Shown here: positions 8,114 to 32,964 of the stretch, one piece after another
How the letters are laid out: the number at the start of each line of letters is the position of its first letter
Numbering within the stretch: position 1 is the stretch's first letter
Origin: Lachnospiraceae bacterium UBA1258
GTDB lineage: Bacteria; Bacillota; Clostridia; Lachnospirales; Lachnospiraceae
Assembly (NCBI GenBank): GCA_002308235.1
Contig: DBVS01000065.1
Coordinates: forward strand, 11,492-65,456
Length of the DNA: 53,965 bases
Reading direction: 5' to 3'
Notes under the pieces: model-generated
Told to the model about the DNA's origin: nothing
The model's input: only the letters and a program-made list of their open reading frames with translations
The model's database searches: none
Program-made: the position numbers and the translations under genes

Positions 8114-9376
8114 TCAACACAGAACGCCCAGCATCCGCTTCGCTTCCGAAACCTCCGCCGAAGTGCAGTCTTTTCCCGAATATCTTGCTTTTTCATAGAT
8201 CAGGGCAAATTTCTCGGCCGAGTCTTTCTTTTCCTCCGGGAAGCTTGCCGCAAATTCCCTTGCGGTCACATATGAGATTCTGTCCGCAATGCCCGGATTT
8301 TTCTGCACAAGTTTAATATACATGCGTCTGATACGCTTGCTGTTTGACGAAACAAAGTCTTCGCGGCCGGGCTTTTTTACAAACTTTCGACGTGAAATCT
8401 TTTCTCTGACTTCTTCAAAACCGTCGCCCACTTCAACGGTTTTCTCACCCTTTCCGGTCCTGAAGGCGGCCACAAGTTTGATTATCAGATAAGCGATTCC
8501 GAAGATTACGCCGCCCACTATTGCCGCGGAAACCGCAAACATGAAGACCTTCTCCAAAAATACCATTATGGGGGAAGGTTCCTTTGCTTCGAGGGGAAGC
8601 ATGTCCATCATGGACGGCATATTGTTTTCCATCGTCTCCTGCACGATCTCTTCAGCAGCCCCGCCCTGCGGAAACAGCGAAAAGAACCAGCGGAAAAAGG
8701 CCTTGACCGCCCCCTTAAGGAAATCAAGAAACCGTCTTATAAGTGTTCCTTCCAGCAAAAGCGCCCCTGCGGCCAGAAAAATACCCGCCATGATCCCAAC
8801 GGCCGGAAGCGACGACCTTAAGATCGAAGTCGACGGAACGTTGGAAATAAGCCTCCTGTTTAAGTCGTCCTGCTTTAGGAAGCTGACTATGAACAGATTC
8901 AGTATGTAGATCGTGGTATAGAAAAGGGCAAAAGCGCCAATCAGAGTCGTCGAACCCCTTTTCATGTAATTCATGGCTATGATGGCAACCACAAAAGCGA
9001 TGGCGGCCATTTCGGGTGTGATGGGAAGGTCGGTTTTCTTTCCGTCCCTGATCCTCCATACGAAGGAAGCAAGCGCCATTACCGCGTATACCACAACCCC
9101 CATGATCCTGTCTGCCAAAGACAGACCGATAAAATCTGATACAAAGAAAAACAAAACCGGCAGTGAAACATGCAAAAGAACGAACAGGATGAAACTTTTC
9201 ACGTATCTTCTGAATGCATAATAGATAACGGGCACTGCCACAGATGCGCAAAGAAGCGGTACGTTCAGCTTAATTTCAAGCCCGGCACAGACTGTGATCC
9301 AGCCGGTCAGGATCACCATGTAGTTCATCAATACCGCAAAAATACCTTTGATCTTACCAAGCACGGGATATATCAT
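8114..9376 (-). CDS. Multi-pass membrane protein with DUF4129-like C-terminus
   Basis: About 8 hydrophobic segments; C-terminal IRRMY..TAREFA..LIYEKARYS is typical of DUF4129. Third gene of the moxR operon. Confidence 0.75.
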   Translation of the reverse strand: MIYPVLGKIKGIFAVLMNYMVILTGWITVCAGLEIKLNVPLLCASVAVPVIYYAFRRYVKSFILFVLLHVSLPVLFFFVSDFIGLSLADRIMGVVVYAVMALASFVWRIRDGKKTDLPITPEMAAIAFVVAIIAMNYMKRGSTTLIGAFALFYTTIYILNLFIVSFLKQDDLNRRLISNVPSTSILRSSLPAVGIMAGIFLAAGALLLEGTLIRRFLDFLKGAVKAFFRWFFSLFPQGGAAEEIVQETMENNMPSMMDMLPLEAKEPSPIMVFLEKVFMFAVSAAIVGGVIFGIAYLIIKLVAAFRTGKGEKTVEVGDGFEEVREKISRRKFVKKPGREDFVSSNSKRIRRMYIKLVQKNPGIADRISYVTAREFAASFPEEKKDSAEKFALIYEKARYSGKDCTSAEVSEAKRMLGVLC

Positions 9377-10502
9377 TCAGCACCTCCCCTGCATCGATCA
9401 CAATGGTTCTGTCCTTTATTTCCTCAGAGACTGCAAAGGGTGAATCGCTCTTTGCCAGACAGACCCAGTAAAATTCGGTTTCTTTTTTCGAAAGCTCCGC
9501 AAGAAAATCCTGGAACAAAGGCTGCATGCAGGGAGAAAGAATGATATCGAAGGAATCCCTTCTCTCTTCCTCGGAAACGCTTTCGTAGAGTTCTTTGAAA
9601 TCCGTCGTTCCCTTGTTCATATCTATCCTTGCAAGGGCTCTGTTAAGGCTTCTGATAAGACTTGCGCCGCTGCCCTCGCCTATGATAACGGGGCTGTCGT
9701 TAAGGACATCCTTGCCGTTACAGTATACGGAAACCGGGACCTCTTCCGCTGCGGATACTTCTGCGATCTTCACCGCCATGCTGATGCAGAGCTCGTTTAA
9801 TTCGTCGCGGCGAAGAAGGGCATTGCTCTCCATGTTTATGAAGATCCGCATGGTTCGTTTGGTGGTGTAGCCGTGAACATTTACCATAAAGTCGTCGGTT
9901 TTTGCCGAAGCCTTCCAGTTTATGTTCTTCATGCCGTCAAAATCCTGATACTCCCTGATGCCGCGAAGTTCGAATGGATCTTCGATACGGTTTCTTTTGG
10001 CACGGGAATCGCCGTTTATCTTATTTAACAGGGCTTCCGGCAATTCGCAGGGATAGGGTCTCGGATAGACATAGAGATATGAGATACTGTCCACGCTCTG
10101 CAGAAAGATCTTTGACGAAAAAATATCACTGCTGACAACATCAACGCCGTTGAAGTCATAGTATCCCCTTGCGGGACAGGAAAACTTCATGGTCCTGGTA
10201 ACCTTGTTGTAAGCACCGATAGTATAGATGTCCGTCCTGTTAAAATAATCGGAAACACTGGAATTGTCCGCATCACGAAAAAGAAGCTTCCTTGAAAGCT
10301 GAAGCTTCATTTTGACTACGGGCAACGGTAACCACTTGGCATTTTCAATGGTTTCGGTAAGTTCTGCTTCCTCTCCTTCATAAACCTCTTCGGTGCTGAA
10401 AAAAGCTGAAACCTTAAGACCCGTAAACCATTTCTTTCGATATATCAAAAGCTGAAGCGAATACAGTAACCCCAAAAGAGCAGCGAGAAAAATGACATAC
10501 AT
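9354..10502 (-). CDS. DUF58 domain protein
   Basis: IENAKWLPLP, ARGYY, LYVYP, GIREY..D.MKNINWKASAK; follows moxR. Confidence 0.9.
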   Translation of the reverse strand: MYVIFLAALLGLLYSLQLLIYRKKWFTGLKVSAFFSTEEVYEGEEAELTETIENAKWLPLPVVKMKLQLSRKLLFRDADNSSVSDYFNRTDIYTIGAYNKVTRTMKFSCPARGYYDFNGVDVVSSDIFSSKIFLQSVDSISYLYVYPRPYPCELPEALLNKINGDSRAKRNRIEDPFELRGIREYQDFDGMKNINWKASAKTDDFMVNVHGYTTKRTMRIFINMESNALLRRDELNELCISMAVKIAEVSAAEEVPVSVYCNGKDVLNDSPVIIGEGSGASLIRSLNRALARIDMNKGTTDFKELYESVSEEERRDSFDIILSPCMQPLFQDFLAELSKKETEFYWVCLAKSDSPFAVSEEIKDRTIVIDAGEVLNDISRAW

Positions 10503-11443
10503 CAGCGCTCCCGTCCGGCCGTAAAACTTTCTGTAGGCTTTACGGTCTCTTTGAGAATATCCCGTATTATTCCGGCTTCCGCTCCGCTGCTTCCCCGACC
10601 GAGAGACAAAACCAGTCTGTGGGCAAGAACGGGAACAGAAAGAGCACTCACGTCATCGGGGATAACGTAATCCCTTCCGCTTACATAAGCATATGCTTTA
10701 GCCGCATTTAACAAAGCAAGAGTACCTCTGGTGCTCGCACCGGCCAAAACACCTGCGTGCTTTCTGGTGGCGGTGACGATATCGAGAATGTATTTGCGCA
10801 CACCCTCGGAAACATAAACGTTTTCCGCACTTTCACGCATGGAAAGAACATCCTCTTTCGTAAGGACACTCTTCAATTCGGAAAGGGGATCCTCCTTCAT
10901 ATATCTGTCCATGACGGAAAGCTCTTCGTCATAGGAAAGGCCGCCCATGGAAAGTTTCATGAGAAAACGGTCAAGCTGAGCTTCCGGCAGTGGGAAGGTT
11001 CCCGATGTTTCGATAGGGTTCTGTGTCGCGATAACAAAGAAAGGCTCCGCAAGCTTATAGGTCTCTCCGTCAATCGTAACCTGTCTTTCTTCCATGCTCT
11101 CCAACAATCCCGCCTGAGTTCTGGGTGTTGCACGGTTTATTTCGTCCGCAAGGATAATGTTCGCAAAGATAGGTCCCTTGCGAAGTTCAAACACGCCCTG
11201 TGCTTTGTTGTAAACATTAAGTCCCGTAATGTCGGTGGGAAGAAGGTCGGGTGTAAACTGGATCCTTGAAAAGTCCGCATCCAATGATGCCGCCAGACTC
11301 TTTGCAAGTTTTGTCTTTCCGCTTCCGGGCATATCCTCAAGAAGAATATGTCCCCCTGAGATCATAGCCGTGATCATCAATTTGACGATCTCATCCTTCC
11401 CTACTATGACCCGGCTGATGTTGTCAGTAAGTTTTTTAATCAT
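10502..11443 (-). CDS. moxR: MoxR-family AAA+ ATPase
   Basis: GHILLEDMPGSGKT, RIQFTPDLLP, LADEINRATPRTQ, ATQNPIE and LPEAQLDRF. Confidence 0.95.
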   Translation of the reverse strand: MIKKLTDNISRVIVGKDEIVKLMITAMISGGHILLEDMPGSGKTKLAKSLAASLDADFSRIQFTPDLLPTDITGLNVYNKAQGVFELRKGPIFANIILADEINRATPRTQAGLLESMEERQVTIDGETYKLAEPFFVIATQNPIETSGTFPLPEAQLDRFLMKLSMGGLSYDEELSVMDRYMKEDPLSELKSVLTKEDVLSMRESAENVYVSEGVRKYILDIVTATRKHAGVLAGASTRGTLALLNAAKAYAYVSGRDYVIPDDVSALSVPVLAHRLVLSLGRGSSGAEAGIIRDILKETVKPTESFTAGRER

Positions 11444-18900: not shown

Positions 18901-20154
18901 TTATTTTCTGTTTTTCTTTCTTTCAAGCTGCTTAAGCTTAAGACCCGTGTTGTAGAAATCCTTAACAGAGCAGCCTGCTCTTCCGCCTCCGGCACAGGCA
19001 CAGGCGCAGGCACAGGCACAGGAGTGTGCACAGGCGCAGGAGCTGTGTGCACAGGAACTGTGTGCGCAGGAACTTCTGGGAACCGAAATGTGTGTTACGT
19101 GTACGCGTACGTAGGTGTTGGGAGAATCCCCGTAACGGAAGGTTCCTTCATCGCTGTACTTCGAAGGCTCCTTGATCTCTTTTTCCTCAACCACTTCTTC
19201 GCTCTCGATAAAACTGCGTCCGCAGTATTCGCATTTATCCTTGCCCTCGGGTCTTGCGGCACCGCAGCCCGGACAGGTGGGATAATACTTGATAAGGGTA
19301 CGGGTGATCTTTTTCTTTGTCTCGGTCTTTGAACCAAAACCGGCACCGGAAGAATACCCAAAGGTTTTCTTGAAAAAGTTTATTAAAATTCCGATAAAGA
19401 CGACTCCGCCGATAAGGCCGAAAATTGCCGGCTCTTCGCCGTCGGAACTGCTGTAGTTACTGTAATTTCCGTATCCCGAATCATTGCCGTAATCGGAATA
19501 ATTATTTGAACCGTAGTCTTTGGAAACACTTTTTGATTCGTCGAAAGCGTAATCCGCCGTATTGTAGGTAATACTTATTTCTTCAAATTTTTCTCCGGGA
19601 TCCAGGGAACCGCTCCAGACCAGGTAACCGTCCTCGGGAGTTGCTCCGTGAGAATTGCTTTTAACTTTGTCCGCGTTCCATCTGATCTCGATGTGATCGA
19701 CTTCTATACCGTCAAACCAGCCGGGCACGAAATAGAATACCGACTCGCCTTCCGTGAGCACGTTCATCTCGTACATGTAGCCCTGAATGATCGAGAAATC
19801 AAAGGATACCGTTTCTCCCTCATAATACGGCCTGTCAAGATCCACTCTCGCATAGTACTCACCGTGTTCATGCATTAACGATATGCGGGAGATGTTGCTG
19901 CTGAGGGCGGAAATGGTCTCGGTGTGGCTGTTTGGAATACCGACCTTCACCCATTCAAGGGGTCCGAGACTGTCATCATCCAAAACCTTCCATTCAACAT
20001 GGTAGGTCATGTAGAGTGTGGCGTCATCGTTTACATCCACGGTAATTACGTAATTGAGTATTTCATCTGTAGGCTCCGCCGCATAGGCAGTTTTCCCCGA
20101 AAGAGAAAAAACAAGCAAAAGAGCGGCGAAAATAGCGGCTATTCTTTTTTTCAT
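18901..20154 (-). CDS. Single-pass membrane protein (417 aa): signal peptide, DUF2207-like extracellular domain, TM helix, zinc ribbon, Cys/Ala/His-rich C-terminal tail
   Basis: ATG at 20154 overlaps the upstream TAA (TAATG) and has an AGGAGG SD. MKKRIAAIFAALLLVFSLSGKTAYA signal; TM AIFGLIGGVVFIGILINFF; CPGC-x10-CEYC; tail SSCAHSSCAHSSCACAHSCACACACACAGGGRAGC. Confidence 0.85.
   Translation of the reverse strand: MKKRIAAIFAALLLVFSLSGKTAYAAEPTDEILNYVITVDVNDDATLYMTYHVEWKVLDDDSLGPLEWVKVGIPNSHTETISALSSNISRISLMHEHGEYYARVDLDRPYYEGETVSFDFSIIQGYMYEMNVLTEGESVFYFVPGWFDGIEVDHIEIRWNADKVKSNSHGATPEDGYLVWSGSLDPGEKFEEISITYNTADYAFDESKSVSKDYGSNNYSDYGNDSGYGNYSNYSSSDGEEPAIFGLIGGVVFIGILINFFKKTFGYSSGAGFGSKTETKKKITRTLIKYYPTCPGCGAARPEGKDKCEYCGRSFIESEEVVEEKEIKEPSKYSDEGTFRYGDSPNTYVRVHVTHISVPRSSCAHSSCAHSSCACAHSCACACACACAGGGRAGCSVKDFYNTGLKLKQLERKKNRK
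18970..19074 (-). repeat. Coding low-complexity repeat: 15-bp (SSCAH) units then 5x TGYGCC (CA)
   Basis: Minus strand reads agttcctgcgcacac agttcctgtgcacac agctcctgcgcc...(tgygcc)5 ggaggcggaaga. Confidence 0.9.
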
Positions 20155-21509
20155 TATTTTTCCCTCCTGAGCGGGCATCTTCCGAGCATAAGGGCGGAAT
20201 ACTCCCTGCGTTTCCTGCAAACTTCATTATTCCAGATCTTGTCCCAGTCATCCTTTAAGATATTTCCGAGAACATCGCCGGACAACCAGCTCTGGCAAGG
20301 CACCACGTTTCCCCCGGGAGTAACTGCCATGTTGCTTAAGCAGGCTCCGCAATTAGGCGTTGAAAGTGCGTGCTCCTTAAAGAACTCATCATCGATCCAG
20401 CCGGGAGAAGTAAAGCTTATCTCCATGCCGTTTTCGTAGGCAAAATCTGATGCATCCGCCAGTACCTTGGCTATCTCCCCGGGAGAAAGCTGCAGCGACT
20501 CGGAAGTCTCGGTAAGAGCATTACCCGTGGTGATAAGACCCGAGCAGGTTACATACATGACACCCTTATCCTTTAAGAATTTAAGAGTGTCCACATAGTT
20601 TCTGTTAAGTGTGCAAAGAGGAGTGTTGACGCTTATGTTAAGACCTGCCTCCAATGCGTTCTCAATACCCGCAACGGTCTCGTCGAAATGATTGCCGCCA
20701 ACGAGCTTATTATGTATGTCTCTGTCATTTGAATAGAAGGTGATCTGCACGCTGTCGATCTCACACTCGTAAAGCTTCTTACAGTAGTCCTTCGTAAGTT
20801 TGATACCGTTTGTGTTAAGGCGCGAAACAAACCACCGTGCATGGTCGATTAATTCGAACAGATCGTCTCTCATGGTGGGTTCGCCGCCGGTGAAGGTCAC
20901 CTGAGGGATTCCGATCTCACGGAGTTTATCAAGAACCGTCTTCCACTCTTGCGTGGAAAGCTCGCCTTCAACGGCTTCCGACTGGCCGGCCGCATAGCAA
21001 TGTACGCAGCACTGGTTACAGTTCCAGCATCCGTTCTTTTCCATGGCGCTGACCATGATATCCATTCTGTGGGGTGCCTTCATGTTTTCGGCATAGTCTC
21101 CGATGTTAAGGTAACCGATATCCGTCGTGACTTCCTCACCGTAGGCCACCTGCTTGAAGGTCTCCATAATGGTATAAATATCGTTTTTAAGGCGCTTTCT
21201 CGATGCAAAAGGAAACACCTTTTTAACGGCGGTGCAGGTATTTTCAAGGATGCTTTCGACTTCCGCATCCGAAACCTCTTTGCCGTGATATTTGTTGACT
21301 TCCTTTATGAATTCCGACAGGAGAATGCTCCAGGAATAATTCACGGGAATGATGTCCTGCCCGTTGATAATCGCGATGCTGGGCGCGATCTTACCGCCTT
21401 CGTATTTGGGCGGGATAAGGTGGATGCGGACAACACCGGGCCCCTCGGGATTCAGGGTCGTGTGGCACACTTCTGTGAAGTTTTCTCGCATGTACTTTCT
21501 CGGGTTCAT
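20154..21509 (-). CDS. Radical SAM protein with RRE/PqqD-like N-terminus and truncated SPASM (twitch-like) domain
   Basis: CNQCCVHC (CxxxCxxC), ELSTQEW, FTGGEPTMR and LNTNG; C-terminal CGAC...GNVVPC...LGNI...WDKIW..C...CP. Confidence 0.9.
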   Translation of the reverse strand: MNPRKYMRENFTEVCHTTLNPEGPGVVRIHLIPPKYEGGKIAPSIAIINGQDIIPVNYSWSILLSEFIKEVNKYHGKEVSDAEVESILENTCTAVKKVFPFASRKRLKNDIYTIMETFKQVAYGEEVTTDIGYLNIGDYAENMKAPHRMDIMVSAMEKNGCWNCNQCCVHCYAAGQSEAVEGELSTQEWKTVLDKLREIGIPQVTFTGGEPTMRDDLFELIDHARWFVSRLNTNGIKLTKDYCKKLYECEIDSVQITFYSNDRDIHNKLVGGNHFDETVAGIENALEAGLNISVNTPLCTLNRNYVDTLKFLKDKGVMYVTCSGLITTGNALTETSESLQLSPGEIAKVLADASDFAYENGMEISFTSPGWIDDEFFKEHALSTPNCGACLSNMAVTPGGNVVPCQSWLSGDVLGNILKDDWDKIWNNEVCRKRREYSALMLGRCPLRREK

Positions 21510-21620: not shown

Positions 21621-22517
21621 TTAAATTGGTGAAAGATATCTGCTTATCTCGTTCAAAACCGATTTCTTGTCGGCGCTCCATTCGGGTGCGATGAGCAGTT
21701 TCTTGTCACCGTCCCCCGTAAGCCGGTGGATGATCATATCCTTAGGAAGAACTTTTATGCATTTACAAAGAAGGTTGATATATTCACTTCTTGTGAGGGT
21801 TTTAAATTTGCCCGCCGCGTACTCTTTGGCAAGATCGGTTCCCTTAAGCACATGAAGAAGCTGAAGTTTGATCCCCTTTGCGCCTGACTCTCCCACATAT
21901 TTTACGGTTTCGAGCATGTCTTCCTCGGATTCCCCGGGGAGGCCTAGGATCACGTGTGTGATCACTTCCATTCCGGAAGCGGACAGCCGTTTGACTGCAT
22001 CTGCGTATACCGAAAGGCCGTAACCGCGTCTAATGTATTCTGCGGTGCTTTCGTGTATGGTCTGAAGTCCGAGTTCAACCCAGACGGGCTTGATCTCATT
22101 TAATTCCTTAAGAAGTTCAAGCACTTCCTGCGGAATACAGTCGGGTCTGGTAGCTATGGAAAGGCATACGACTTCAGGATCGTTTATTGCCTCAAAAAAT
22201 TTTTCCCGCATCACATCAATGGGACCGTAGGTGTTCGTAAAAGCCTGGAAGTACGCTATATACCCGGGCTTTTCTTCTTTCGGAAGTTTTGATGCGATGA
22301 AGGCTTTCCCTGCCGCAAGCTGTTCCTTTATGCCGACACCCGACTGAGCAAACTCTCCGGAGCCGCCCGCCGAGCAGAAAATGCACCCGCCTGTTCCGAC
22401 TTTCCCGTCGCGGTTCGGACAGGTAAAGCCCGCATTCAGCGAAACCTTGTAAACTTTGGTTCCGAAACGCTCCCGAAGATATGAATTTAACGAACGATAG
22501 GTAAGCTTTTCAGGCAT
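21621..22517 (-). CDS. TIGR01212-family (YhcC/YtqA-like) radical SAM protein
   Basis: GFTCPNRDG..GTGGCIFC, YFQAFTNTY, IATRPDC, VELGLQT and IHRLTGD. Confidence 0.93.
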   Translation of the reverse strand: MPEKLTYRSLNSYLRERFGTKVYKVSLNAGFTCPNRDGKVGTGGCIFCSAGGSGEFAQSGVGIKEQLAAGKAFIASKLPKEEKPGYIAYFQAFTNTYGPIDVMREKFFEAINDPEVVCLSIATRPDCIPQEVLELLKELNEIKPVWVELGLQTIHESTAEYIRRGYGLSVYADAVKRLSASGMEVITHVILGLPGESEEDMLETVKYVGESGAKGIKLQLLHVLKGTDLAKEYAAGKFKTLTRSEYINLLCKCIKVLPKDMIIHRLTGDGDKKLLIAPEWSADKKSVLNEISRYLSPI

Positions 22518-22518
22518 T

Positions 22519-24414
22519 TTACTTTTTATCGTACCACCAGTTCTGTCCGTCGGAAGTTCCCTCGGAAGCCCCGTCAGTCGAACCGCTTGAAGGTTTGTTT
22601 TTCTTTGCTTTTTTGATGCGGTCCGTAACGATATACAAAACTGTGCTCAAAACGATCAATCCCACAAGTACGAGCATTCCCGTGAAGAACAGACGCTCCT
22701 CCTTTATGCTCTTTACCGCTTCGGATGCGGACTTTTCCGCAATTTCAAGGAACTTTTCGGTATTGTTTGCATTATATCTGATGATATACTGCCACAGGCA
22801 TACGCCGGCACCCGCCAAAAGCAGGATATTCCAGACAATAAGAGTGACAAGGTTGTTTTCCGGTTTCTTTTTAAAGAAAATAAGTGCAAGGATAATGACA
22901 ACGATACTTGCCACACCCGCGATCATCAGAGGAAGATACTGCTGCCACCAGGGCTTTTCGGTAACGGTGTTGCTGACGACGCTCACAGCCTTTTTGTAAA
23001 GTGTGACCGCCCTTGCCGCTGTGTTTCCGTTGACGTCCTCGACTTCGATATTTATGACGTTTTCACCTGCTTCCAGTTTCTTCTCGTAGGTGAAGGAACC
23101 GTCCTCTTTGTATTCGCAGTCTGCTCCGTCAATCCTTAACGTCTTGGCGCCCTTGACTTTACCTAAAATGGTAAAACTGTCGCCCGTAACGGATTTTCCG
23201 TCAGGATTATCAAAAAGAACGATCTCGGGCGGAATGGCATCAAAGTAAACGTCGGTATCGATCACGTATGAAAGCGAATCATCTATCTTTAATTCTGCAT
23301 AAACGGTATTGTTTCCCTGCTCAAGATCGAAGGAAAGTTCGCCGCTTTCTTTGATCTTATAGTTTCCTTCGTGCCCGTTTACCTTTACGACAAGTTCGGA
23401 CTCTCCCGAAACGGAATAAGCAATGCGAAGCTGTGAAGACCCCGTTACGTCTCCGTTCAGATTTTTAAGATATTCCTTCGAAAGATCGATCTTTTTGACA
23501 AAAGATTCCGAACGAAGACCATAATCATAGTAAGCAAGTCTTATCTCAATTTCCCCTGAGCCGACAGGGATAAGAGTGACGTCATTCGATACGCCGGTCT
23601 CGAGTTCTTTGGAAGATATCACTTCTCCGTCTGCAAGCACTGTTAGTTTGTGATTCGAATATGAACCGGGCTTACTTCTTTTCCAGTCAACGGAAACCGT
23701 TCCTGCATCAAAATCGAGCTTTGTCACGATACCTTCGGGTGCTTTTCCGGTTCTTGAATTGGTGAAGTTTACGGCATCGGAGTTTACCGAGTCAAAGATT
23801 TCCGCATCGCCGTCTTCATAATAAACATCAAGTCTGAAAATGTAGTTTCCGCTTGAAATATTTGAAGCATAAAAACTCAGTTCCGTTTCTTTATTGGGAA
23901 ATGCAGAACCGGAAGCCACGCGTTCTGAATAATCCTCTTCGGTGCTGACCATGTAGATCTCATAGTTGTATAAATAGATATCATCTTCACAATCGGCCTG
24001 AAATTTAACCGATACTCTTTCTTTTTCGATGCTTTCGACCGTGAAGTTTTGGATCCAAAGGCCGTAATCGTCGTTTATGATCGAATACTCGATTTCCGTG
24101 TTTCCGGCGGGATCGTATTCTAGAGTCCATTTACCTTTTTCGGCATCCGTGATACGGTATGTGCTCCAGCCATCCCCCGAAGCATATCCGACGCCTTCGT
24201 CACCGGCCTTCATTCGCTTTCCCGAAGGAGAAATGAATTCGATATCAACAACCTCGGCGTCAAAAGAGAACATGATTGCAAGGTCTCCGCCCTCTTTTGT
24301 CTTTTCGACGACAGTCTGTTTTGTTTCCGCATATGCATTGGTCTTGCAGAGCAGAAATGCCGCTGCGACCATTGCAAAGCAACATAAATTGATCAAAAAT
24401 TTTCTGAAGGACAT
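22519..24414 (-). CDS. Exported protein with beta-sandwich/Ig-like repeats and three C-terminal TM helices
   Basis: Signal peptide ending AYA; LEQGNNTV and LEAGENVINIEVEDVNGN Ig-like signatures; three hydrophobic C-terminal segments. Confidence 0.8.
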   Translation of the reverse strand: MSFRKFLINLCCFAMVAAAFLLCKTNAYAETKQTVVEKTKEGGDLAIMFSFDAEVVDIEFISPSGKRMKAGDEGVGYASGDGWSTYRITDAEKGKWTLEYDPAGNTEIEYSIINDDYGLWIQNFTVESIEKERVSVKFQADCEDDIYLYNYEIYMVSTEEDYSERVASGSAFPNKETELSFYASNISSGNYIFRLDVYYEDGDAEIFDSVNSDAVNFTNSRTGKAPEGIVTKLDFDAGTVSVDWKRSKPGSYSNHKLTVLADGEVISSKELETGVSNDVTLIPVGSGEIEIRLAYYDYGLRSESFVKKIDLSKEYLKNLNGDVTGSSQLRIAYSVSGESELVVKVNGHEGNYKIKESGELSFDLEQGNNTVYAELKIDDSLSYVIDTDVYFDAIPPEIVLFDNPDGKSVTGDSFTILGKVKGAKTLRIDGADCEYKEDGSFTYEKKLEAGENVINIEVEDVNGNTAARAVTLYKKAVSVVSNTVTEKPWWQQYLPLMIAGVASIVVIILALIFFKKKPENNLVTLIVWNILLLAGAGVCLWQYIIRYNANNTEKFLEIAEKSASEAVKSIKEERLFFTGMLVLVGLIVLSTVLYIVTDRIKKAKKNKPSSGSTDGASEGTSDGQNWWYDKK

Positions 24415-24434
24415 TTATATTTCACCTCATTAAG

Positions 24435-27400
24435 TTAGTTCAAAGCGCTCTTCCGGCTGCCGGCGTGTCCGTTTTCGTCAAGGTAGTAGAATTTGCTGAT
24501 TCTTTTCTCATTACCGAAAATATTGTCATAAGTGCCGTTGACGGCAAGTATCCACTCATGTTTGCCGTTATGTGTCGTATATAATCCGAATGCAACCGAT
24601 GCGTCCATTTCCTTTTCGGTATTGATGAGCCACCAGTTTATGTCATACATTGCGGTACCGGTATGCTGAAAACCGATAAATCTTGAATGGATATCGAGTT
24701 CATCCTTACCGCTTAATTCCAGCTTGATCCTGCCGTCGGAGCTGTCCCACATAATACCCTGCTTAAAGCTTGCCATAAATCCTTTGACTTTTTCTCCGTT
24801 GATCGCAAGAAGGGGATTGGAATAATCAAAGTTTCCGCCGTGAACCTCGGCCTCGGCAATCTTTATTTCACTTAAAACCTTGAGCTGAGCCTTAAGTTCG
24901 ATCTCAAAGGGATTTACGCAAAGTGATGCCGTGGTTTCGGGCATCTCGAGCAAAGCCATGTCTCCCAGGAATTTGCCCAATCCGGGGATATAATCCTTTA
25001 TCTTGCAGGATGTTATATCCATAGAGCCTGTAAATTTGAGTTTGGTAAAGTTACGCTCTTTGATGGCGGTATCAATTTCTGAAACCTGGAAGGCAAATTT
25101 GTTAAGTTCAAGCGGGAAGGTGGTGGGAAGCTTTATTCCCTTCGCGAGCTCCAGTTTAAGCTTTGCGGAATTGGGTATAAGAGAACCCTTCCACTCAACC
25201 GCGCACCCGATTCCGGAACCATTGGAGAAGAAGTCAAAATTCACCATTGCGTCGATGCTGTACTCGTTCTTTATCGTATTGATCTTGACCTCAAGTTCTC
25301 CGCCGAATTTGGCAGGAGAGCCGAACAAACTGATGGGGTTCGTACAATCGGAATCTTTCTTATGTCCGACAGAGGTATCCAGGATGAGTCCGACTTTTTT
25401 GTCGGTTATGGAAGCGCTTCCGTCAAACGTAAACTTAAAGAGCATCTCCGCATCAAACCCGGCGCTCAAAATCTGTTCCTGATAAGGGAACATCGTTGTA
25501 CCGGTTTTGAAGTTCAAATTGATGCTGTCGGGATAAAGTCTTACCGTAGGGCTGTCAAACATAACCAGCTTTGCAATCTTCAAAATACCCGGTCTGATAT
25601 CATCTACCAGAAAATTATCGTAATCGTAGCGATGTAACTCATCATTATAAAGCGTAAAGGAGCCAAGCCTCGGAATATCGAGTGCTATACCTTTGGATGC
25701 CAGGAACTTGGCAATTCCCGTTGCGGTTGCTTCGTCAAATTCCACATAAGAACCGCTGTTATCCGTAACAAATATCGAACCTCCCGCCTCAATATCTCCT
25801 CTGAGGCTTACATCCCCCTTAAAGTGAAGCCAGCCGTTCATGGTAACATTTCCGCGAAGCACTGTTTCGCCATAGTCGTCCTCGATCCGCTCTGTAGACG
25901 TAAAGACATAAGGTCCGAAGACCGTTCTCTTCTCGGTACCCTCCACAATAACGGAGAAACCGTTCTTAAGAACCTTATTCTTTCCGCCGATGCTGATCTC
26001 GACATCATAGGTTCCGACTGCCACGCTGGCGGGAACGGTCAGGGAGTAAGTTTCCGAATCAACATATTTTGCTTCGATGGTGTAATCTATATTGCCGTTT
26101 AACTTAACGGTGATCTCGCTCTTTTCTTCAAAACCGGTACCTTTAAGTTTAATGGAAGCGTCCTGAATGCCCTTGTACATATATCTGGGATTAATGCCGG
26201 AAATGCTGAGGCCCTGTGAAACCGCAAGTCCGTTTTCGTCACTTCCGCCGGGAAGCGAATAGGTCTTGACGTCTCTTAAATTGTTTTCGGGAATCAAAAC
26301 CTCAAGAGTTCTGCCCGAAAGAGTAATCGTATCGCTTGCTTTGTACTTGAGTTCGTAACGGTTATGGAGCTGGCCGTGGATCATATCGAAGAACGAAGTA
26401 AGGCTTGCGCTGTCCGAAATGTAAACAAGGTCGCCGTTTCCGCTTCTTGCGATGGTATTTAGATAAGCGGTATTAACACCCGATCCAAGACCCATGGAGT
26501 AGATCGCAACGCCCTTTTCAAGTGCGAGACTGCCGATATTACTGTAGATCTCTTCCGCACTTCTGCTGGTGTTGTCCTGACCGTCGGTCATAAGGATAAT
26601 GACGTTGTTCTCATCCTTCTTGCTCGCAAAATAGTTAAGGCACTGCAGGGTTGCGGAGTACATGTCGGTTCCGCCGCTCGCATACATATTGTTTGCGAAA
26701 TCCATAAGGCTCGAATCATCGGAGCCAAAAAGCATCTCTCCGGTAATAGAGCCGGCAAAGGTTACAACCGCAAGGTTTTCGCCCTCATTCTTGTTGGTAA
26801 TGAAGGTCTTTACGGCTGCTCTGAGGTCTCCGATGCTGTCGGACATACTTCCCGAAACATCACAAAGAAGCATTACATTGGAGCCCTTATATTCAATCTT
26901 ATCCAGAGTGAAATCCTTGATCTCGGCGCCGCAGTCGTAAATCCTCAATGCGTTCTTCAAAGCGTTCGTATTCGGGTAATTGCTTGCATCGATCTGAACG
27001 ATCGCGGTGATCTCGCCTTCCTTGTCGAAATTCCCCGTGTCAATCCTTCCGATCGAGATCGAACTCTTTATCTTGCTGACATAGTCTGCCGCTGCCTGTG
27101 AGAAGTCTTTCTTTGTCTCGGGAGTTTCCGTATCATTCCCCTGCTTTGTTGATGTGGCAGGTTTTGTCTGAGAAAAGCCTGCGGTCTGCACCGGAGCATA
27201 GCCTGAACCGGAATTCACGGTCTGAACGGAACCGTAGGCCGGATCGGAGTTTTTACTTTGAGTATTTCTTTTTCCGGAATTACCGCTTCTGTCTGAGTTG
27301 TCTTTCTTATCTGAAGTGCCCGACTTTCCCGATGAATAAGCCGTATCGGGATTGTACTGGGGAGAAACGATCTTCTCGACATTTACCGTTAATGAGTGAT

Positions 27401-28784
27401 CAAGAACCGTATCAACATAATCCTTCACGTTCTTGATGTTTTCCGTATCATTGTCTTCATCATTGCTGATAACGCTAATGATCTGCGTCATTCCCGCAAC
27501 ATAACTGTCGTCCTCGTTGTCCTGCGAACTGTAGATTGCTTCGCTCAAATATGAAGCAGAGGAATTGTCGTTTCCGAAATAGTACTCGATCTTTGCAAGT
27601 TCGAGGCAGACCTTGGTCTTGTCGGTTCCTGCGCCCGTTTCGGCAAATACTGTCAGCTGCTCTTTGATGTTCATGAGCTCGGTCTCGCGAAGCTGTACAC
27701 CTATAGAATCGACACGAGCCTTAAGAGCGTTCTTTTCCTGCACCGTAAGGCCTGTCTTCATACCCGCATAAACCTTGCTGAGTCTGGCTTCGATCGTTTT
27801 GATGTCCGCCTTCGCAACGTTTCTGTAAGCACCTGAAAACTCGGTCTTCTTTACAAGACCGCTCATATAAAGCTCTGCCGCTATCATCAGTTCGTGATAA
27901 TCGGAATCTGCTCTTAAATTCTTTGTAATGGCATCGTAATCCCCGGTAAGCACGTAAGACTTGATCCTTGCTTTGCTTACGCATTCAAGGCTTAAAAGCT
28001 CGGGAGCGCTTTTCTCGAGCTCATTAAATTTTTTCTTAAAGCCTTTTACCTCTTTGCCGATCTCTTCATCGGTATTGTCCGATACGGCTTCATAGGTTTT
28101 TGATACGCCGGCCACAGCATCGGCGCAATCCCTTATCTCGTCGGAAAGATTGTAGCTGTCCTTAATATTGCTTTTAACGCTTTTAAAAATGTCAGCGCTG
28201 TCAAGCATCAGTGTCCCGGAAGTCTTGGTATATATCTCCTCCGAATAGCCGTACTCACTGAGGTCTGCACCGATTGACTTAAGATAATTTATCATAACAA
28301 GATCGGAAGTATCGCCCTCGATCTTGTTTTGGGCAAATTTCACTTCTTCATCGCTGTTTGAAATAAGCGATGTATTATCGCAAAGAAAAACGTAAAGCTG
28401 TTCTGCGGTTTCATAATCACCCTGCAAAAGAGCGATCCTTGAATTCAAGAGTCTGCATTCATCGTCGTAACCGTAGACCTCGCTGTACTGGTCGATGACT
28501 TCGGCTGCCTCGTCGTAGGCTTCTTCCAGAACGAGCGCATTGGCAAACTCCATCATCTTTTTCTGAGAAAGCATGGGAGTCGATTCACTTGCCGTTACGA
28601 TCTGCCGTTTTGCACCCATAAAGAGTGTGGTCCCGCAGACTGCGGTAAGGACAACGGCAGCAAGGATCTTGCCTGCCGCGAAAGCCTTTCTCTTTAATAA
28701 TATAATGATTGTCACCAGGCATCCGGGCAAAAGACCCGCGCCGATTTGAAGAAAAATGTTCATTAGAATACTGCGGTTATCCAA
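24435..28784 (-). CDS. Giant membrane-anchored VWA-domain protein (helical/TPR-like N-half, VWA, IPT/TIG-like, beta-rich C-terminus)
   Basis: Two N-terminal TM segments; MIDAS motif DVSGS..GGTD..LMTDG; ISGINP..IKLKGTGF TIG-like signature. Start codon uncertain. Confidence 0.85.
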   Translation of the reverse strand: MDNRSILMNIFLQIGAGLLPGCLVTIIILLKRKAFAAGKILAAVVLTAVCGTTLFMGAKRQIVTASESTPMLSQKKMMEFANALVLEEAYDEAAEVIDQYSEVYGYDDECRLLNSRIALLQGDYETAEQLYVFLCDNTSLISNSDEEVKFAQNKIEGDTSDLVMINYLKSIGADLSEYGYSEEIYTKTSGTLMLDSADIFKSVKSNIKDSYNLSDEIRDCADAVAGVSKTYEAVSDNTDEEIGKEVKGFKKKFNELEKSAPELLSLECVSKARIKSYVLTGDYDAITKNLRADSDYHELMIAAELYMSGLVKKTEFSGAYRNVAKADIKTIEARLSKVYAGMKTGLTVQEKNALKARVDSIGVQLRETELMNIKEQLTVFAETGAGTDKTKVCLELAKIEYYFGNDNSSASYLSEAIYSSQDNEDDSYVAGMTQIISVISNDEDNDTENIKNVKDYVDTVLDHSLTVNVEKIVSPQYNPDTAYSSGKSGTSDKKDNSDRSGNSGKRNTQSKNSDPAYGSVQTVNSGSGYAPVQTAGFSQTKPATSTKQGNDTETPETKKDFSQAAADYVSKIKSSISIGRIDTGNFDKEGEITAIVQIDASNYPNTNALKNALRIYDCGAEIKDFTLDKIEYKGSNVMLLCDVSGSMSDSIGDLRAAVKTFITNKNEGENLAVVTFAGSITGEMLFGSDDSSLMDFANNMYASGGTDMYSATLQCLNYFASKKDENNVIILMTDGQDNTSRSAEEIYSNIGSLALEKGVAIYSMGLGSGVNTAYLNTIARSGNGDLVYISDSASLTSFFDMIHGQLHNRYELKYKASDTITLSGRTLEVLIPENNLRDVKTYSLPGGSDENGLAVSQGLSISGINPRYMYKGIQDASIKLKGTGFEEKSEITVKLNGNIDYTIEAKYVDSETYSLTVPASVAVGTYDVEISIGGKNKVLKNGFSVIVEGTEKRTVFGPYVFTSTERIEDDYGETVLRGNVTMNGWLHFKGDVSLRGDIEAGGSIFVTDNSGSYVEFDEATATGIAKFLASKGIALDIPRLGSFTLYNDELHRYDYDNFLVDDIRPGILKIAKLVMFDSPTVRLYPDSINLNFKTGTTMFPYQEQILSAGFDAEMLFKFTFDGSASITDKKVGLILDTSVGHKKDSDCTNPISLFGSPAKFGGELEVKINTIKNEYSIDAMVNFDFFSNGSGIGCAVEWKGSLIPNSAKLKLELAKGIKLPTTFPLELNKFAFQVSEIDTAIKERNFTKLKFTGSMDITSCKIKDYIPGLGKFLGDMALLEMPETTASLCVNPFEIELKAQLKVLSEIKIAEAEVHGGNFDYSNPLLAINGEKVKGFMASFKQGIMWDSSDGRIKLELSGKDELDIHSRFIGFQHTGTAMYDINWWLINTEKEMDASVAFGLYTTHNGKHEWILAVNGTYDNIFGNEKRISKFYYLDENGHAGSRKSALN

Positions 28785-30707: not shown

Positions 30708-31463
30708 TCACCGCATAAATTCCACCGCATGTTTCCGTGCCCAGAGAGGGAAGTGGTTTCTCTGGCACTTCTCATTGGCCCGCTCTTTGATTGCCACGGA
30801 ATCAAAGAATACTTTCCAAAGATCCGTATATTTATCGTTCTCTTCCTCGGTGTGAAGAAGGTTTTCAAATTCGACATCCGTCAGTTTCTGAATGTAAAAG
30901 TGTTCATTTTTCCCATGGATCACGGCTTCTCTATGGATATCATCAACTATGACAAAGAACTCCGAGGGCATGCGGTCCGAAAAAATGGGGCCTAAGTATC
31001 CCACAACCCTGCTCCTGGGTTCAAAATGAGCGATATATACATTTCCAACCCGGTGAAAACGAAGGATCTCTCTGAAGCGCTCCGCTTCTCTCACGACTCT
31101 GGCCCTTATCTCGCGATTTCTCATGATGTCCGCAAATTTGACCATGCGAAGTACCTCCGGGCCATAGTGAAATCCCAGGATCAGCACGTGATATATGTTA
31201 TCAAGCACATCCTCTTCAAAGGCCATGGCCGTGTAAGCCATCTCCGTGTATACTTCATAAGAAATCCTGCGGACGATGGCCTCGCTGAGTCTGTCTGCCT
31301 TTGACGGATCGGCATCCACATGAACGTATTCGTCCAGGAAAGACACCTGTCCCACGGGCTCAAGCAAAAGCTTAATGTTCTTATGACCCAGTCCGCTTTC
31401 AAAAGCCTCAAATATGCAGGTAAGCATCGCCTCCCATTCGGGTTCACATGTAAAAATCCTCAT
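30708..31463 (-). CDS. TIGR03915/DUF4130-family putative DNA metabolism protein
   Basis: EAMLTCIFEAF, F.DRMPSE.FVI.D and Y..LWKVFFDSVAIKERAN..CQR; coupled to the upstream radical SAM gene. Confidence 0.88.
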   Translation of the reverse strand: MRIFTCEPEWEAMLTCIFEAFESGLGHKNIKLLLEPVGQVSFLDEYVHVDADPSKADRLSEAIVRRISYEVYTEMAYTAMAFEEDVLDNIYHVLILGFHYGPEVLRMVKFADIMRNREIRARVVREAERFREILRFHRVGNVYIAHFEPRSRVVGYLGPIFSDRMPSEFFVIVDDIHREAVIHGKNEHFYIQKLTDVEFENLLHTEEENDKYTDLWKVFFDSVAIKERANEKCQRNHFPLWARKHAVEFMR

Positions 31464-32917
31464 GCTCTCTCCATTTTCAGATCGTCAAACAGGTTAAGCT
31501 GCCTGAAATCGTTATTCCGATCCGTAATCTGATAAACATCCCTTCGATCCGCATCCGCCAGCTGATTCAAAATATATCGATGGTCCATCGGTACTCTTTC
31601 AAACATCCGTCCGTTACAGGTTATAAAGAATCTGGCCCGTTTCAGCACCACATGCATGCGTTTGAGCATCTCAAAGTTGATGCTCCCGTATCTTCTGGCA
31701 CTGACGATCCGTTTGACACTCGTGGGGCCGATCCCGGGTACCCTTAAGAGCACATCTACAGGCGCAGTGTTGATCTCCACCGGAAATCTGTCCAGGTGAT
31801 TGATGGCCCAAAAGCACTTGGGATCCACTCTGTAATCCAGGAAAGGATTGTCACCCGTAAGTATCTCATCCGCCACAAATCCGTAATAACGGATCAGCCA
31901 GTCGGCCTGATAGAGTCTGTGTTCCCTGAGAAGGGGAACGGGAGCGGTCTTATCCGGGAGGGCCGCGTCCTCATTAACGGGAATATAGGCCGAAAAGAAA
32001 ACGCGCTTTAAATCAAAGCTTTGATAAAGTGCCTGAGTGGTCCTGATAAGATCGAGGTCCGTTTCGTCCGTGGCCCCGATGATCATCTGTGTGCTCTGCC
32101 CGGCAGGCGCAAAGGGGCGCCTTAAAAGAGCGTCGTTTTTCTCTGCGGGATAAAGAAAGGGATTGGCTGCGGGAAACAGTGAGGAGTCCCCCTCGGGCCC
32201 CTCTATACGGTCGACACCCGGTCCGAAAATGCTGTTTACCAGGTGTTTATTGATCCCACAGCGCTCCATACGGGCGGACTTTCCGACGGCGACCCTGTGT
32301 CCCGCAATGGTACCCGATATCCGGTTCATGGGACCGATGATATTTTTCATGTTCTTATTCGGAGCAAGCTTCCGGAGACTTTCCTGGGTGGGCAATTCCA
32401 TGTTCAAACTGATTCTGTCCGCCAGAAGCCCCGCCGAATAAATCAGCTCATCGGAAGCACCGGGAATGGCCTTCACGTGGATATACCCGTTAAACCTGTA
32501 TTTGGTACGAAGAAGGCGCAAAGTCTCACAGATGCGCTCCATGGTGTAATCGGGGCTCTTGATAACTCCCGAACTTAAGAAAAGCCCCTCTATGTAATTT
32601 CGCTTATAGAATTCTATGGTGAGAGTGCAGATCTCCTCCGGTGTGAAGGTTGCCCTGGGAACATCATTGCTCGCTCTGTTTTTGCAATACTTGCAATCGA
32701 ATATGCAATGATTGGTCATGAGGATCTTAAGAAGAGAGATGCACCTTCCGTCAGACGTGAAAGCATGACATACGCCCGCAGCCACGGAATTGCCGAGAAA
32801 TCCTTCCCGTCCGCCGCGGCTCACACCGCTTGAGGTACAGGCCACATCATACTTGGCCGCATCGGAAAGGATCGTAAGTTTTTCTTTTAATGGATCGTTG
32901 TTACTCAAATCGTACAT
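31460..32917 (-). CDS. TIGR03916-family putative DNA modification/repair radical SAM protein with C-terminal HhH
   Basis: KLTILSDAAKYDVAC, CIFDCKYC, APAGQSTQMIIGA, REHRLYQADWL and LLRVPGIG. Start moved to ATG 32917. Confidence 0.92.
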   Translation of the reverse strand: MYDLSNNDPLKEKLTILSDAAKYDVACTSSGVSRGGREGFLGNSVAAGVCHAFTSDGRCISLLKILMTNHCIFDCKYCKNRASNDVPRATFTPEEICTLTIEFYKRNYIEGLFLSSGVIKSPDYTMERICETLRLLRTKYRFNGYIHVKAIPGASDELIYSAGLLADRISLNMELPTQESLRKLAPNKNMKNIIGPMNRISGTIAGHRVAVGKSARMERCGINKHLVNSIFGPGVDRIEGPEGDSSLFPAANPFLYPAEKNDALLRRPFAPAGQSTQMIIGATDETDLDLIRTTQALYQSFDLKRVFFSAYIPVNEDAALPDKTAPVPLLREHRLYQADWLIRYYGFVADEILTGDNPFLDYRVDPKCFWAINHLDRFPVEINTAPVDVLLRVPGIGPTSVKRIVSARRYGSINFEMLKRMHVVLKRARFFITCNGRMFERVPMDHRYILNQLADADRRDVYQITDRNNDFRQLNLFDDLKMERA

Positions 32918-32964
32918 CTGTTCGCCTCTGGTAATATCATAGAACAAATGTTTCTTTTTGTAAA
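32912..32964 (-). promoter_or_regulatory. Sigma-A promoter with two LexA (Cheo) boxes
   Basis: TTTACA (32964-59), 17 bp, TATGAT (32941-36). GAACAAATGTTT (32942-53) lies in the spacer and GAACAGATGTAC (minus, 32923-12) overlaps the start codon; each is one mismatch from GAAC-N4-GTTC. Confidence 0.75.

Follow-up and report, generated by a model that had tools for sequence, protein, structure and literature searches.

Two minus-strand genes lie together in the analysed window, a 53,965-nucleotide stretch of Lachnospiraceae bacterium UBA1258. One encodes a radical SAM enzyme and the other a membrane protein, here called the carrier, that ends in a Cys-rich tail (Table 1). The stop codon of the enzyme gene and the start codon of the carrier gene share the sequence TAATG (20156-20152), confirming the one-base overlap described in the initial annotation. 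A longer form of the carrier, starting at a TTG at 20220 according to the ORF finder, was not supported because most aligned homologs start at MKK...

The pair had also been described as its own transcription unit. The hairpins on both sides were recovered by the minus-strand terminator scan; the proposed promoter element, TGtTATGAT, is present in the sequence but was not called by the promoter scan. The downstream terminator had further been read as bidirectional; the scan listed it on the minus strand only, although mecA converges on this hairpin from the other side and an A-run precedes it. The number of terminator-like sites (6 observed versus 4.8 ± 1.9 by chance) was not above chance. Ten RNA runs contained small shares (0.05-0.13). 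Four of them yielded no more than short pieces of contigs; some were 98-100% alike across both genes, and two spanned the junction. Since contigs cannot show transcription, these pieces were not counted as evidence of expression.

Table 1. Genes and features of the enzyme-carrier locus (positions in the window)
Feature	Position	Strand	Description or basis
Radical SAM enzyme gene	20154..21509	-	451 aa; RRE, radical SAM core and twitch-type C-terminus
Carrier membrane protein gene	18901..20154	-	417 aa; remotely DUF2207-like; without Pfam/NCBIfam family
Closing hairpin of the upstream gene	21594-21575	-	On the terminator scan's list
Extended -10-like TGtTATGAT	21553-21545	-	Consensus match only; absent from the promoter scan's list
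10-bp GC-rich hairpin with T-tail, ending the pair	18889-18865	-	On the terminator scan's list
RRE-fold domain, enzyme residues ~15-125	21135..21467	-	Strands, then three helices; structure model; profile link to PqqD-matching orthologs
CX3CX2C motif, C164/C168/C171	20997..21020	-	Sequence
Twitch-type region	20175..20351	-	C387, C405 and C445 invariant; C390 and C431 nearly so in the window's clade
Predicted signal peptide, carrier residues 1-25	20080..20154	-	Sequence, hydropathy
Predicted extracellular beta-sandwich, residues 27-205	19540..20076	-	Structure model with pLDDT above 90 for the most part
Single predicted transmembrane helix, residues 244-262	19369..19425	-	Hydropathy; AlphaFold helix 244-269
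CxxC-x10-CxxC zinc ribbon, Cys 294/297/308/311	19222..19275	-	Optional in the family
Ten-Cys tail, residues 361-395	18970..19074	-	Cys at 363-395; core CACACACAGGGRAGC at 381-395; predicted disordered
Follower SxKDFYxTxL after the core	18925..18969	-	Conserved; candidate RRE-binding stretch

Enzyme architecture and coupling to the tail gene

The enzyme belongs to the radical SAM SPASM/twitch superfamily: it carries CX3CX2C within its PF04055 match (E 3.6e-20), matches PF13186 over the cut-off (E 6.4e-07), and has the three invariant cysteines C387, C405 and C445 of the auxiliary cluster. Both the CX3CX2C motif and these three cysteines are kept in all 68 active enzymes. A full SPASM domain occurs in 30 of the 68 orthologs and a shortened form in the other 38, among them the window's enzyme, from which the second-cluster motif CxxC-x5-C is absent. 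C390 and C431 are each found in 36 of the 38 enzymes of the window's clade, and either could fill the fourth site of the auxiliary cluster.

Structural comparison of the predicted enzyme (pLDDT 86) revealed SkfB as the top match (Z 26.4, rmsd 5.1, 339 aligned, model residues 27-442) and SuiB as the next (Z 26.1, rmsd 4.2, 355 aligned, model residues 28-451), both spanning the RRE-fold N-terminus. Fold rank does not fix the chemistry, since anSME (Z 25.2) and viperins (Z 24) score no more than ~1-2 Z below SkfB; the epimerase EpeE ranks much lower (Z 17.6). Among the N-termini of distant orthologs, 32 of 40 match PqqD; by profile, these N-termini match the RRE TfuB1 at E 1.1e-07 and align to the N-terminus of the window's clade at 91%. 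The N-terminal profile of the window's clade alone retrieved no RRE from the PDB; the assignment for this clade is made through the structure model and the intermediate profile, and on that footing the predicted RRE fold is upheld. No NCBIfam match listed reached the cut-off of a curated maturase model (SkfB, AlbA, StsB and others), the SkfB model scoring 60 of 300 bits. In PADLOC, the matches were confined to viperin models and were of a generic radical SAM kind.

Does a Cys-tail gene always accompany the enzyme, as initially proposed? The tail gene lies directly downstream in 13 of 15 GTDB enzyme loci, and the other two loci end inside the carrier. Within the family, 27 of 401 genomes carry the enzyme domain; 20 of these have a tail match, in every case within ~2.5 kb downstream, and among the remaining seven a variant, CACACACASSGRAGC, is adjacent in five while contig ends cut two. 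Overall, 25 of the 27 enzyme-bearing genomes have an adjacent tail, a count drawn from related genomes rather than independent samples. No tail match was found in the 374 family genomes lacking the enzyme. In the reverse direction, 58 of 70 metagenome tail contigs carry an enzyme-family gene, and each of the 12 contigs without one has less than 1 kb on one side. Where at least 1 kb was available on both sides, an enzyme homolog was present in 31 of 31, with only a cluster-less copy in view in two of them (L049 and L092). The gene order is reversed in other lineages, and enzyme clades track tail types in a quick tree, in which the L014 tail label is an artefact of a cut contig. Coupling of the enzyme and tail genes thus runs both ways across distant lineages, and the proposed co-occurrence is supported wherever the readable DNA extends far enough.

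The enzyme was present in 3 of 251 genomes of an order-wide sample. The tail DNA pattern occurs in an estimated ~4000 metagenome stretches, most of the sampled ones being genuine. A plasmid search gave no match at E 1e-25, and six pattern matches in viral contigs comprised five chance-like ones and one tail fragment at a contig edge. No other conserved gene was found beside the pair in the window's clade, nor any Cys-rich small ORF next to it or a recurring protease or transporter, in agreement with the initial reading, which recognised no short precursor, transporter or protease gene nearby.

The carrier and its Cys-Ala tail

Hydropathy analysis of the carrier revealed two hydrophobic stretches, a signal-like one at the N-terminus and another at ~242-262. 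The latter is followed by eight K/R residues, versus one K/R and six D/E before it; the tail is therefore predicted to be cytoplasmic, on the enzyme's side of the membrane, as previously suggested. The beta-sandwich model resembles the N-terminal domains of ribophorin I and M1 aminopeptidases. The predicted signal peptide, ectodomain, single membrane helix and tail of the earlier description were recovered. The zinc ribbon is present too but is an optional element, occurring as an insert in 14 of 94 full-length carriers and as a separate gene in 24 loci.

Carriers range from 310 to 780 aa and keep their ectodomain and cytoplasmic domain from lineage to lineage. Profile comparison indicated remote homology to DUF2207 proteins over the ectodomain, membrane helix and cytoplasmic domain for long carriers (99%) and over the ectodomain only for the window's carrier (80%). 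Atlas neighbours of the carrier are also DUF2207-like, and carriers have the DUF2207-type layout of signal peptide, beta-sandwich ectodomain, membrane helix and Gly-rich C-terminus, although none of 19 carriers matched PF09972/PF20990 over the cut-off. The window's own genome (65% complete) holds a single copy of the tail and no DUF2207 match.

The core, CACACACAGGGRAGC, is the most conserved part of the carrier. Its codons vary at 13 of 13 third positions and at 0 of 13 second positions, and the tail motif is kept in 119 of 120 homologs; this conservation at the peptide level argues that the motif is more than chance. All 120 of 120 long carriers end in ACACAGCACACAGGGR. A glycyl-radical reading of RAG was rejected because long carriers end at GGGR. 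The ten cysteines of the original description are all present, but invariance is limited to about four of them plus the one after GGGRAG. The Ala and Gly positions of the core are as invariant as Cys. Its first two Gly are replaceable by Ser (GGG to SSG), and no enzyme position was found to co-vary with this variant (5 versus 34 enzymes).

The core is flanked by Gly-rich linkers, predicted to be disordered, and HSS triplets upstream of it are variable. The conserved stretch of the window's gut clade follows the core rather than preceding it. Across 144 clusters, this follower (SxKDFY) keeps K in 144, D in 127, F in 125 and Y in 128, and its position is fixed while the spacing from membrane helix to core ranges from 30 to 178 aa. 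Complex prediction for the enzyme with tail residues 345-417 gave a median of 0.28 versus a mark of 0.32, without folded controls, and carries no weight in either direction.

Proposed modification and rival explanations

From these sequence patterns, we propose that a radical SAM enzyme of the peptide-modifying type likely cross-links the near-invariant Cys-Ala tail of its neighbour inside the cell. The more specific reading, that it installs putative Cys-to-carbon thioethers in the tail of an intact membrane protein, is evenly poised; it draws on the two-way gene coupling, the peptide-maturase architecture, the conservation of the core and precedents. The carrier would be exported and anchored with its beta-sandwich outside and its tail inside, where the RRE domain would grip the tail by a fixed stretch adjoining the core: probably the follower SxKDFY after GGGRAGC in the window's clade, and probably a conserved stretch before the core in clades that stop at GGGR. 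A SAM-derived radical would then abstract a hydrogen from a carbon of an Ala, Gly or Cys residue while the auxiliary cluster holds a tail thiolate; like those of CteB and CrpC, this cluster has no more than three universal Cys ligands. Several thioethers would be set in the Cys-Ala/Gly core in this way. In the weakest step of this scheme, repeated turnovers may rigidify the tail, which would then bind a metal or a partner and be coupled to the ectodomain, possibly under redox or envelope stress, as with DUF2207 proteins.

Several observations were counted against the thioether reading. C390 or C431 could fill the fourth cluster site, and anSME and viperins are close in fold rank. Known ranthipeptide acceptors are Asp, Glu, Thr and Asn, none of which occurs in the core. 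The GGG to SSG change is tolerated with no matching enzyme change.

The same tail could instead undergo other radical chemistry, such as epimerisation of alternate residues into an L/D strand, anSME-like Cys oxidation, or C-C or dehydro bonds that leave the thiols free for metal. The coupling and RRE evidence applies equally here, anSME ties with RiPP maturases in fold rank, and a strict two-residue period would fit alternate-residue chemistry. The anSME target motif is CxPxR/CxAxR, which the tail lacks, its Arg standing five residues after the last Cys, and the epimerase EpeE falls far down the fold ranking. HXS enzymes made an unexpected +8 Da change on a protein, according to PMC13128918; Cys-rich cores beside RRE-SPASM enzymes, however, have mostly given thioethers (PMC13692751). 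On balance, we consider such chemistry rather unlikely.

Unlikely, too, is a tail that is no substrate at all, serving as an unmodified metal- or Fe-S-binding strand or as a membrane tether or regulator of an enzyme that acts elsewhere. Alternating Cys can all point to the same side of a strand, the zinc-ribbon element recurs, and cluster-less enzyme copies that keep the RRE (11 of 71 rows) are conserved in some lineages, implying that non-catalytic binding roles exist. Against this, the invariance of Ala and Gly goes beyond what metal binding needs, the pair is joined in the window's clade by neither a further conserved gene nor a small peptide, and the peptides bound by RRE-bearing radical SAM enzymes are their substrates.

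That the carrier is a giant precursor, whose modified core is excised by an unlinked protease to act as a free RiPP, seems improbable. Disordered Gly-rich linkers and RRE-type recognition would suit it, but the core is predicted to face the cytoplasm, the ectodomain and cytoplasmic domain are kept across lineages, and no protease or transporter recurs beside the pair; short database matches to the tail resemble carrier fragments without a shared leader, and ordinary DUF2207 proteins share the Gly-rich end free of Cys. Adjacency by chance, or translation of what is really a DNA hexamer repeat, can practically be dismissed: TGYGCC-like hexamers do occur in the window's tail, yet synonymous sites saturate while the peptide stays fixed, and two-way co-occurrence with reversed gene order refutes chance adjacency.

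Returning to an enzyme-made cross-link in the membrane protein's tail, it would, if true, be an undescribed modification. No curated family in the libraries searched claims either protein, in line with the initial view of the pair, and no description was found in openly accessible main texts; an atlas supplement may still list it. Few cases of RiPP-type radical chemistry on full-size proteins have been tested; the precedents, CrpC/CrpA and QhpD, act on soluble proteins (PMC13692751), and none was found on a membrane protein's cytoplasmic tail. The pair lends itself to an unusually clean test: there is a single enzyme, the invariant core spans 15 residues, the follower is defined, and nature supplies variants (SSG in place of GGG, presence or absence of the second cluster and of the cluster-less paralog). 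It would also open a first mechanistic route to the Gly-rich tails found in DUF2207-like proteins. Tentatively, and with more doubt than confidence, we envisage that the Gly-rich tail of DUF2207-like membrane proteins has become a RiPP core built into the protein. The radical SAM enzyme, which would read a follower instead of a leader in gut lineages and be aided elsewhere by the cluster-less paralog and a zinc-ribbon membrane protein, would write a new linkage (e.g., Cys-to-Ala rings arranged as a ladder) on the inner side of a membrane receptor, yielding a cofactor-like sensing element common to anaerobic bacteria and archaea.

Comparison with known systems

DUF2207 proteins (PF09972/PF20990) encoded beside LemA share remote homology and a Gly-rich C-terminus with the carriers but have Cys-free tails and LemA-like neighbours; no radical SAM gene lay within the 1.5-kb flanks of 13 DUF2207 loci. 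In TIGR04222 membrane proteins with MNIO enzymes (PMC12452194), too, the C-terminal tails are Ser/Gly-rich and contain Cys, and a RiPP-type enzyme encoded next to them has been proposed, likewise as a hypothesis, to act on them. There, the enzyme family differs, the tails are predicted periplasmic and variable, and the association is loose; none of 19 carriers tested matched TIGR04222, and no MNIO neighbour was found. In the HXS anti-phage system (PMC13128918), two radical SAM proteins mature a repeat-bearing envelope protein, and some lineages here have two enzyme-like genes; HXS differs in its His-Xaa-Ser repeats and periplasmic cleaved effector. No such effector with HxsB/HxsC/HxsD was found here, the HxsC model scored the enzyme far below cut-off (58 of 268 bits), and carriers had no PADLOC match. 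Unlike the anSME/sulfatase type, which has no RRE, the enzyme here has one and the tail reads CAGGGR.

SkfB, CteB, AlbA, PapB and SuiB resemble the enzyme in fold and in the order of their domains, RRE included. Despite its RRE, SuiB forms a C-C bond and holds its peptide at a site away from the RRE; CteB binds a substrate Cys at an open site (PMC6231123). In contrast to sactipeptide and ranthipeptide maturases, the pair has no short leader-core precursor, protease or exporter, and its Cys core sits in a 310-780-aa carrier. QhpD also uses an RRE and sets thioethers into a protein subunit, QhpC. Unlike the carrier, QhpC is a soluble enzyme subunit of small size, its links join Cys to Asp/Glu, and its leader is N-terminal (PMC13692751).

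CrpC/CrpA of Methanococcus voltae (TIGR04463) is also an RRE-radical SAM-SPASM enzyme adjoining a full-size Cys-rich protein. The best 25 of 57 NCBIfam matches of the window's enzyme all stay below their cut-offs, and TIGR04463 is not among them. CrpA has a mass of 29 kDa, a leader-like region at its N-terminus and a repeat of 17 residues, and the word "membrane" is absent from the main text of PMC13692751; the window's pair instead has a membrane-protein tail, (Cys-Ala)n, a follower and an enzyme without the second-cluster motif. CrpC puts ranthionine links into its Cys-rich protein, and its first auxiliary cluster is ligated by three Cys (PMC13692751). The enzyme here shares such a cluster, with thioethers shown on CrpA and predicted only for the carrier. 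As in the protein-modifying type represented by CrpC and QhpD, the obligate partner of the enzyme is an adjacent full-size Cys-rich protein.

Coupling of the radical SAM enzyme to the Cys-Ala tail

The pair is real and tightly coupled. The genes for the radical SAM enzyme and for its partner membrane protein (the carrier) lie on the minus strand where the initial annotation had placed them, with the TAATG overlap at 20156-20152. The tail was directly downstream of the enzyme in 13 of 15 GTDB loci, and the other 2 stop within the carrier; in these as in all our coupling counts, related genomes are not independent samples. Across 401 genomes of the family, the enzyme domain was present in 27 and the tail in 20, always adjacent. 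The 7 discordant loci comprised 5 with an adjacent CACACACASSGRAGC tail and 2 cut by contig ends, giving an adjoining tail in 25 of 27 genomes, and no tail match was found in the 374 enzyme-less genomes.

A pattern scan of metagenomes yielded 125 loci, 80 of them with flanks (on 76 contigs), and the tail was in frame in 70. On the basis of an enzyme profile built from the enzymes of these same loci, which had first been picked up with the window-family profile, a same-strand enzyme-family gene accompanied 58 of the 70 in-frame tail contigs; all 12 enzyme-less contigs had one flank under 1 kb. Such a gene was found in 31 of 31 tail contigs with 1 kb on both sides, 2 of which had only a cluster-less copy (enzyme-like, lacking CX3CX2C) in view. 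The expectation that a Cys-rich tail would neighbor the enzyme was thus borne out in all three collections.

In the gut clade, to which the window's pair belongs, the enzyme gene precedes the carrier gene; where carriers end in GGGR or GGGxG, it mostly lies downstream. Such a reversal between lineages is difficult to account for unless the pairing is functional. In a quick tree of 71 enzymes (CX3CX2C absent from 11 rows), types bearing the follower, an SxKDFY stretch after the invariant core of the tail, formed one clade with support of 100. Atlas clusters of long carriers, those of other lineages whose tail stops at GGGR, were mostly from Chloroflexota, Myxococcota, Thermoplasmatota, and Bathyarchaeota.

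Architecture of the enzyme and the carrier

The enzyme matches the radical SAM and SPASM domains of Pfam. None of the best 25 of its 57 NCBIfam matches reached the cut-off, and those of four active orthologs outside this clade all fell below theirs too. In the structure model (pLDDT 86), the N-terminal part shows a sheet and then three helices, and SkfB, SuiB, CteB, and TigE ranked at the top in Foldseek. A second structural aligner gave Z scores of 26.4 for SkfB and 26.1 for SuiB with alignments beginning at model residue 27-28, thus covering the RRE region, and 25.2 for anSME, aligned only from residue 145. N-termini of distant orthologs matched PqqD in 32 of 40 cases and the RRE TfuB1 at an E value of 1.1e-07. 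The gut-clade N-terminal profile found no RRE in PDB by itself and aligned with that of the distant orthologs at 91%. Together, these data support the proposed N-terminal RRE. C387, C405, and C445 are invariant across 68 active enzymes (those with CX3CX2C). The second-cluster motif CxxC-x5-C is kept in 30 and absent from 38, including the window's; of these 38 enzymes, 36 have C390 and 36 have C431.

The carrier has 14 cysteines, four in the CxxC-x10-CxxC ribbon and ten in the tail, as annotated. Two hydrophobic stretches, one N-terminal and one at about 242-262, and a charge distribution that follows the positive-inside rule predict a cytoplasmic tail, in agreement with the earlier proposal. 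The ectodomain was modeled as a beta-sandwich, like the N-terminal domains of ribophorin I and M1 aminopeptidase, and the tail is predicted to be disordered. No Pfam or NCBIfam family passed for this carrier and 18 others; taken with the NCBIfam matches listed for the enzyme, the pair did not fall into an already characterised family in these searches.

AGGGRAGC occurs in 119 of the 120 best homologs and ASSGRAGC in 1, and every one of the 120 best long carriers has ACACAGCACACAGGGR as its C-terminus. In 13 loci found via the enzyme, third positions of the motif codons varied at 13 of 13 and second positions at 0 of 13. Among the best 150 of 246 tail-profile matches (50%-identity clusters), CxCAGGG is present in 144, always followed by R-A/V-G-C-x-x-K, and then by D in 127, F in 125, and Y in 128, in a set biased to follower-bearing tails because the profile contained follower columns. 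In the same set, the zinc ribbon is present in 14 of 94 full-length carriers, and 30-178 residues separate membrane helix and core (93 proteins). Variant tails include CACACACASSGRAGCSVKDFF in a Lachnospiraceae-family clade (L164-L168) and GSG forms among database proteins. Tail-bearing carrier genes occur as tandem pairs at L026/L027, L038/L039, L042/L043, L092/L093, and L099.

The window-carrier profile matched long carriers at 99.7%, the long-carrier profile matched true DUF2207 proteins at 99%, and the window-family profile matched DUF2207 directly at 80%; Atlas neighbors of carriers agree with this link. Unlike the carriers, true DUF2207 proteins (13 loci, L150-L162) have Cys-free Gly-run ends, in many cases with Arg or Trp as the last residue. 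Their genes mostly lie beside genes that are LemA-like by motif, and no radical SAM match was found in their 1.5-kb flanks. These ends, together with the profile links, suggest that the Cys-Ala block was inserted into an ancestral Gly-rich end.

Surroundings and accessory genes

The pair had been described as its own unit, bounded by terminators with a -10 site upstream. Hairpins do flank it on either side, but the number of hairpin-type sites in the window is not above chance and the scan did not list the -10-like sequence, so this claim rests on gene layout, with the TIGR01212 gene on the upstream side and mecA converging from downstream. Pair and surroundings have the same G+C, and the near relatives bearing names are Lachnospiraceae. 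The TIGR01212 gene (over cut-off) is also upstream in locus L011 and is not kept in more distant loci.

Features of the window and of related loci (L, compared loci from metagenomes and genomes; P, database proteins)
Feature	Position	Strand	Remark
Radical SAM enzyme	20154-21509	-	451 aa
Carrier	18901-20154	-	417 aa
TIGR01212 MnmL/YtqA tRNA-modifying radical SAM	21621-22517	-	directly upstream of pair
mecA			downstream of pair, convergent
1449-aa vWA-domain protein and 631-aa Ig-like membrane protein	22519-28784	-	tandem
Radical SAM/helix-hairpin-helix, then DUF4130	30708-32947	-	similar to a putative DNA-repair pair already known
MoxR ATPase with DUF58	9354-11443
EEPKW zinc-ribbon protein	L028:1986-2408		precedes long carriers, 24 loci
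RRE-keeping cluster-less copy	L035:5313-6584		also L050, L061, L066, L075, L086, L096, L024
Cluster-less paralog, very long branch	L049:5865-7211; L076:417-2030; L092:905-2221		just upstream of carriers
Carrier of ~770 aa	L066:1703-4033		also P0243-P0249; ectodomain seemingly duplicated
Enzyme with split RRE match	L170:3589-5244		~40-residue insertion; Ala replaces C390

The small two-helix protein ending in EEPKW (CxxC..CxxC) had no NCBIfam match at the threshold used; its ribbon resembles that of the window carrier over 30 columns (90%), which may be a generic resemblance. In many long-carrier loci, the active enzyme is followed by a second enzyme-like gene that has the RRE and lacks CX3CX2C and the auxiliary cysteines. 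The different paralogs upstream of carriers keep the C-terminal SPASM cysteines in two of three cases. Genes for small PAS-like proteins are found repeatedly in the vicinity of long carriers (L025, L050, L056, L067, L068, L075), and a methyltransferase is downstream in some (L024, L035, L096).

Possible chemistry and relation to known systems

Coupling, enzyme architecture, and conservation are established for the pair, and the enzyme probably acts on the carrier tail in some way. Our preferred reading, at about even odds, is that it forms thioethers in the tail of the intact membrane protein. The RRE would bind the follower of a tail lying in the cytoplasm, a substrate thiolate would sit on the auxiliary cluster, and the thioether product might enable the tail to bind a metal or a partner when stress is sensed. 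In PMC10457818, tolerance of acid and peroxide is linked to a DUF2207 protein. The same tail could undergo some other chemistry, which we consider unlikely; that it serves unmodified as a scaffold or tether seems less likely again, and release of the core as a free peptide is quite improbable.

Thioether formation in an intact protein can be set beside CrpA, a Cys-rich protein that carries thioethers according to passages of PMC13692751, where QhpD is cited. Auxiliary-cluster ligation and the RRE are treated in parts of PMC6231123, TIGR04222 protein tails in parts of PMC12452194, and the HXS system in PMC13128918. The passages covered of PMC9062424 do not mention the pair, and no description was found in the open-access main texts searched; within searchable literature and databases, it is uncharacterised. 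The ranthipeptide and sactipeptide maturases are candidate likenesses in mode of action, but the target here would be a protein, and the pair falls outside those families.
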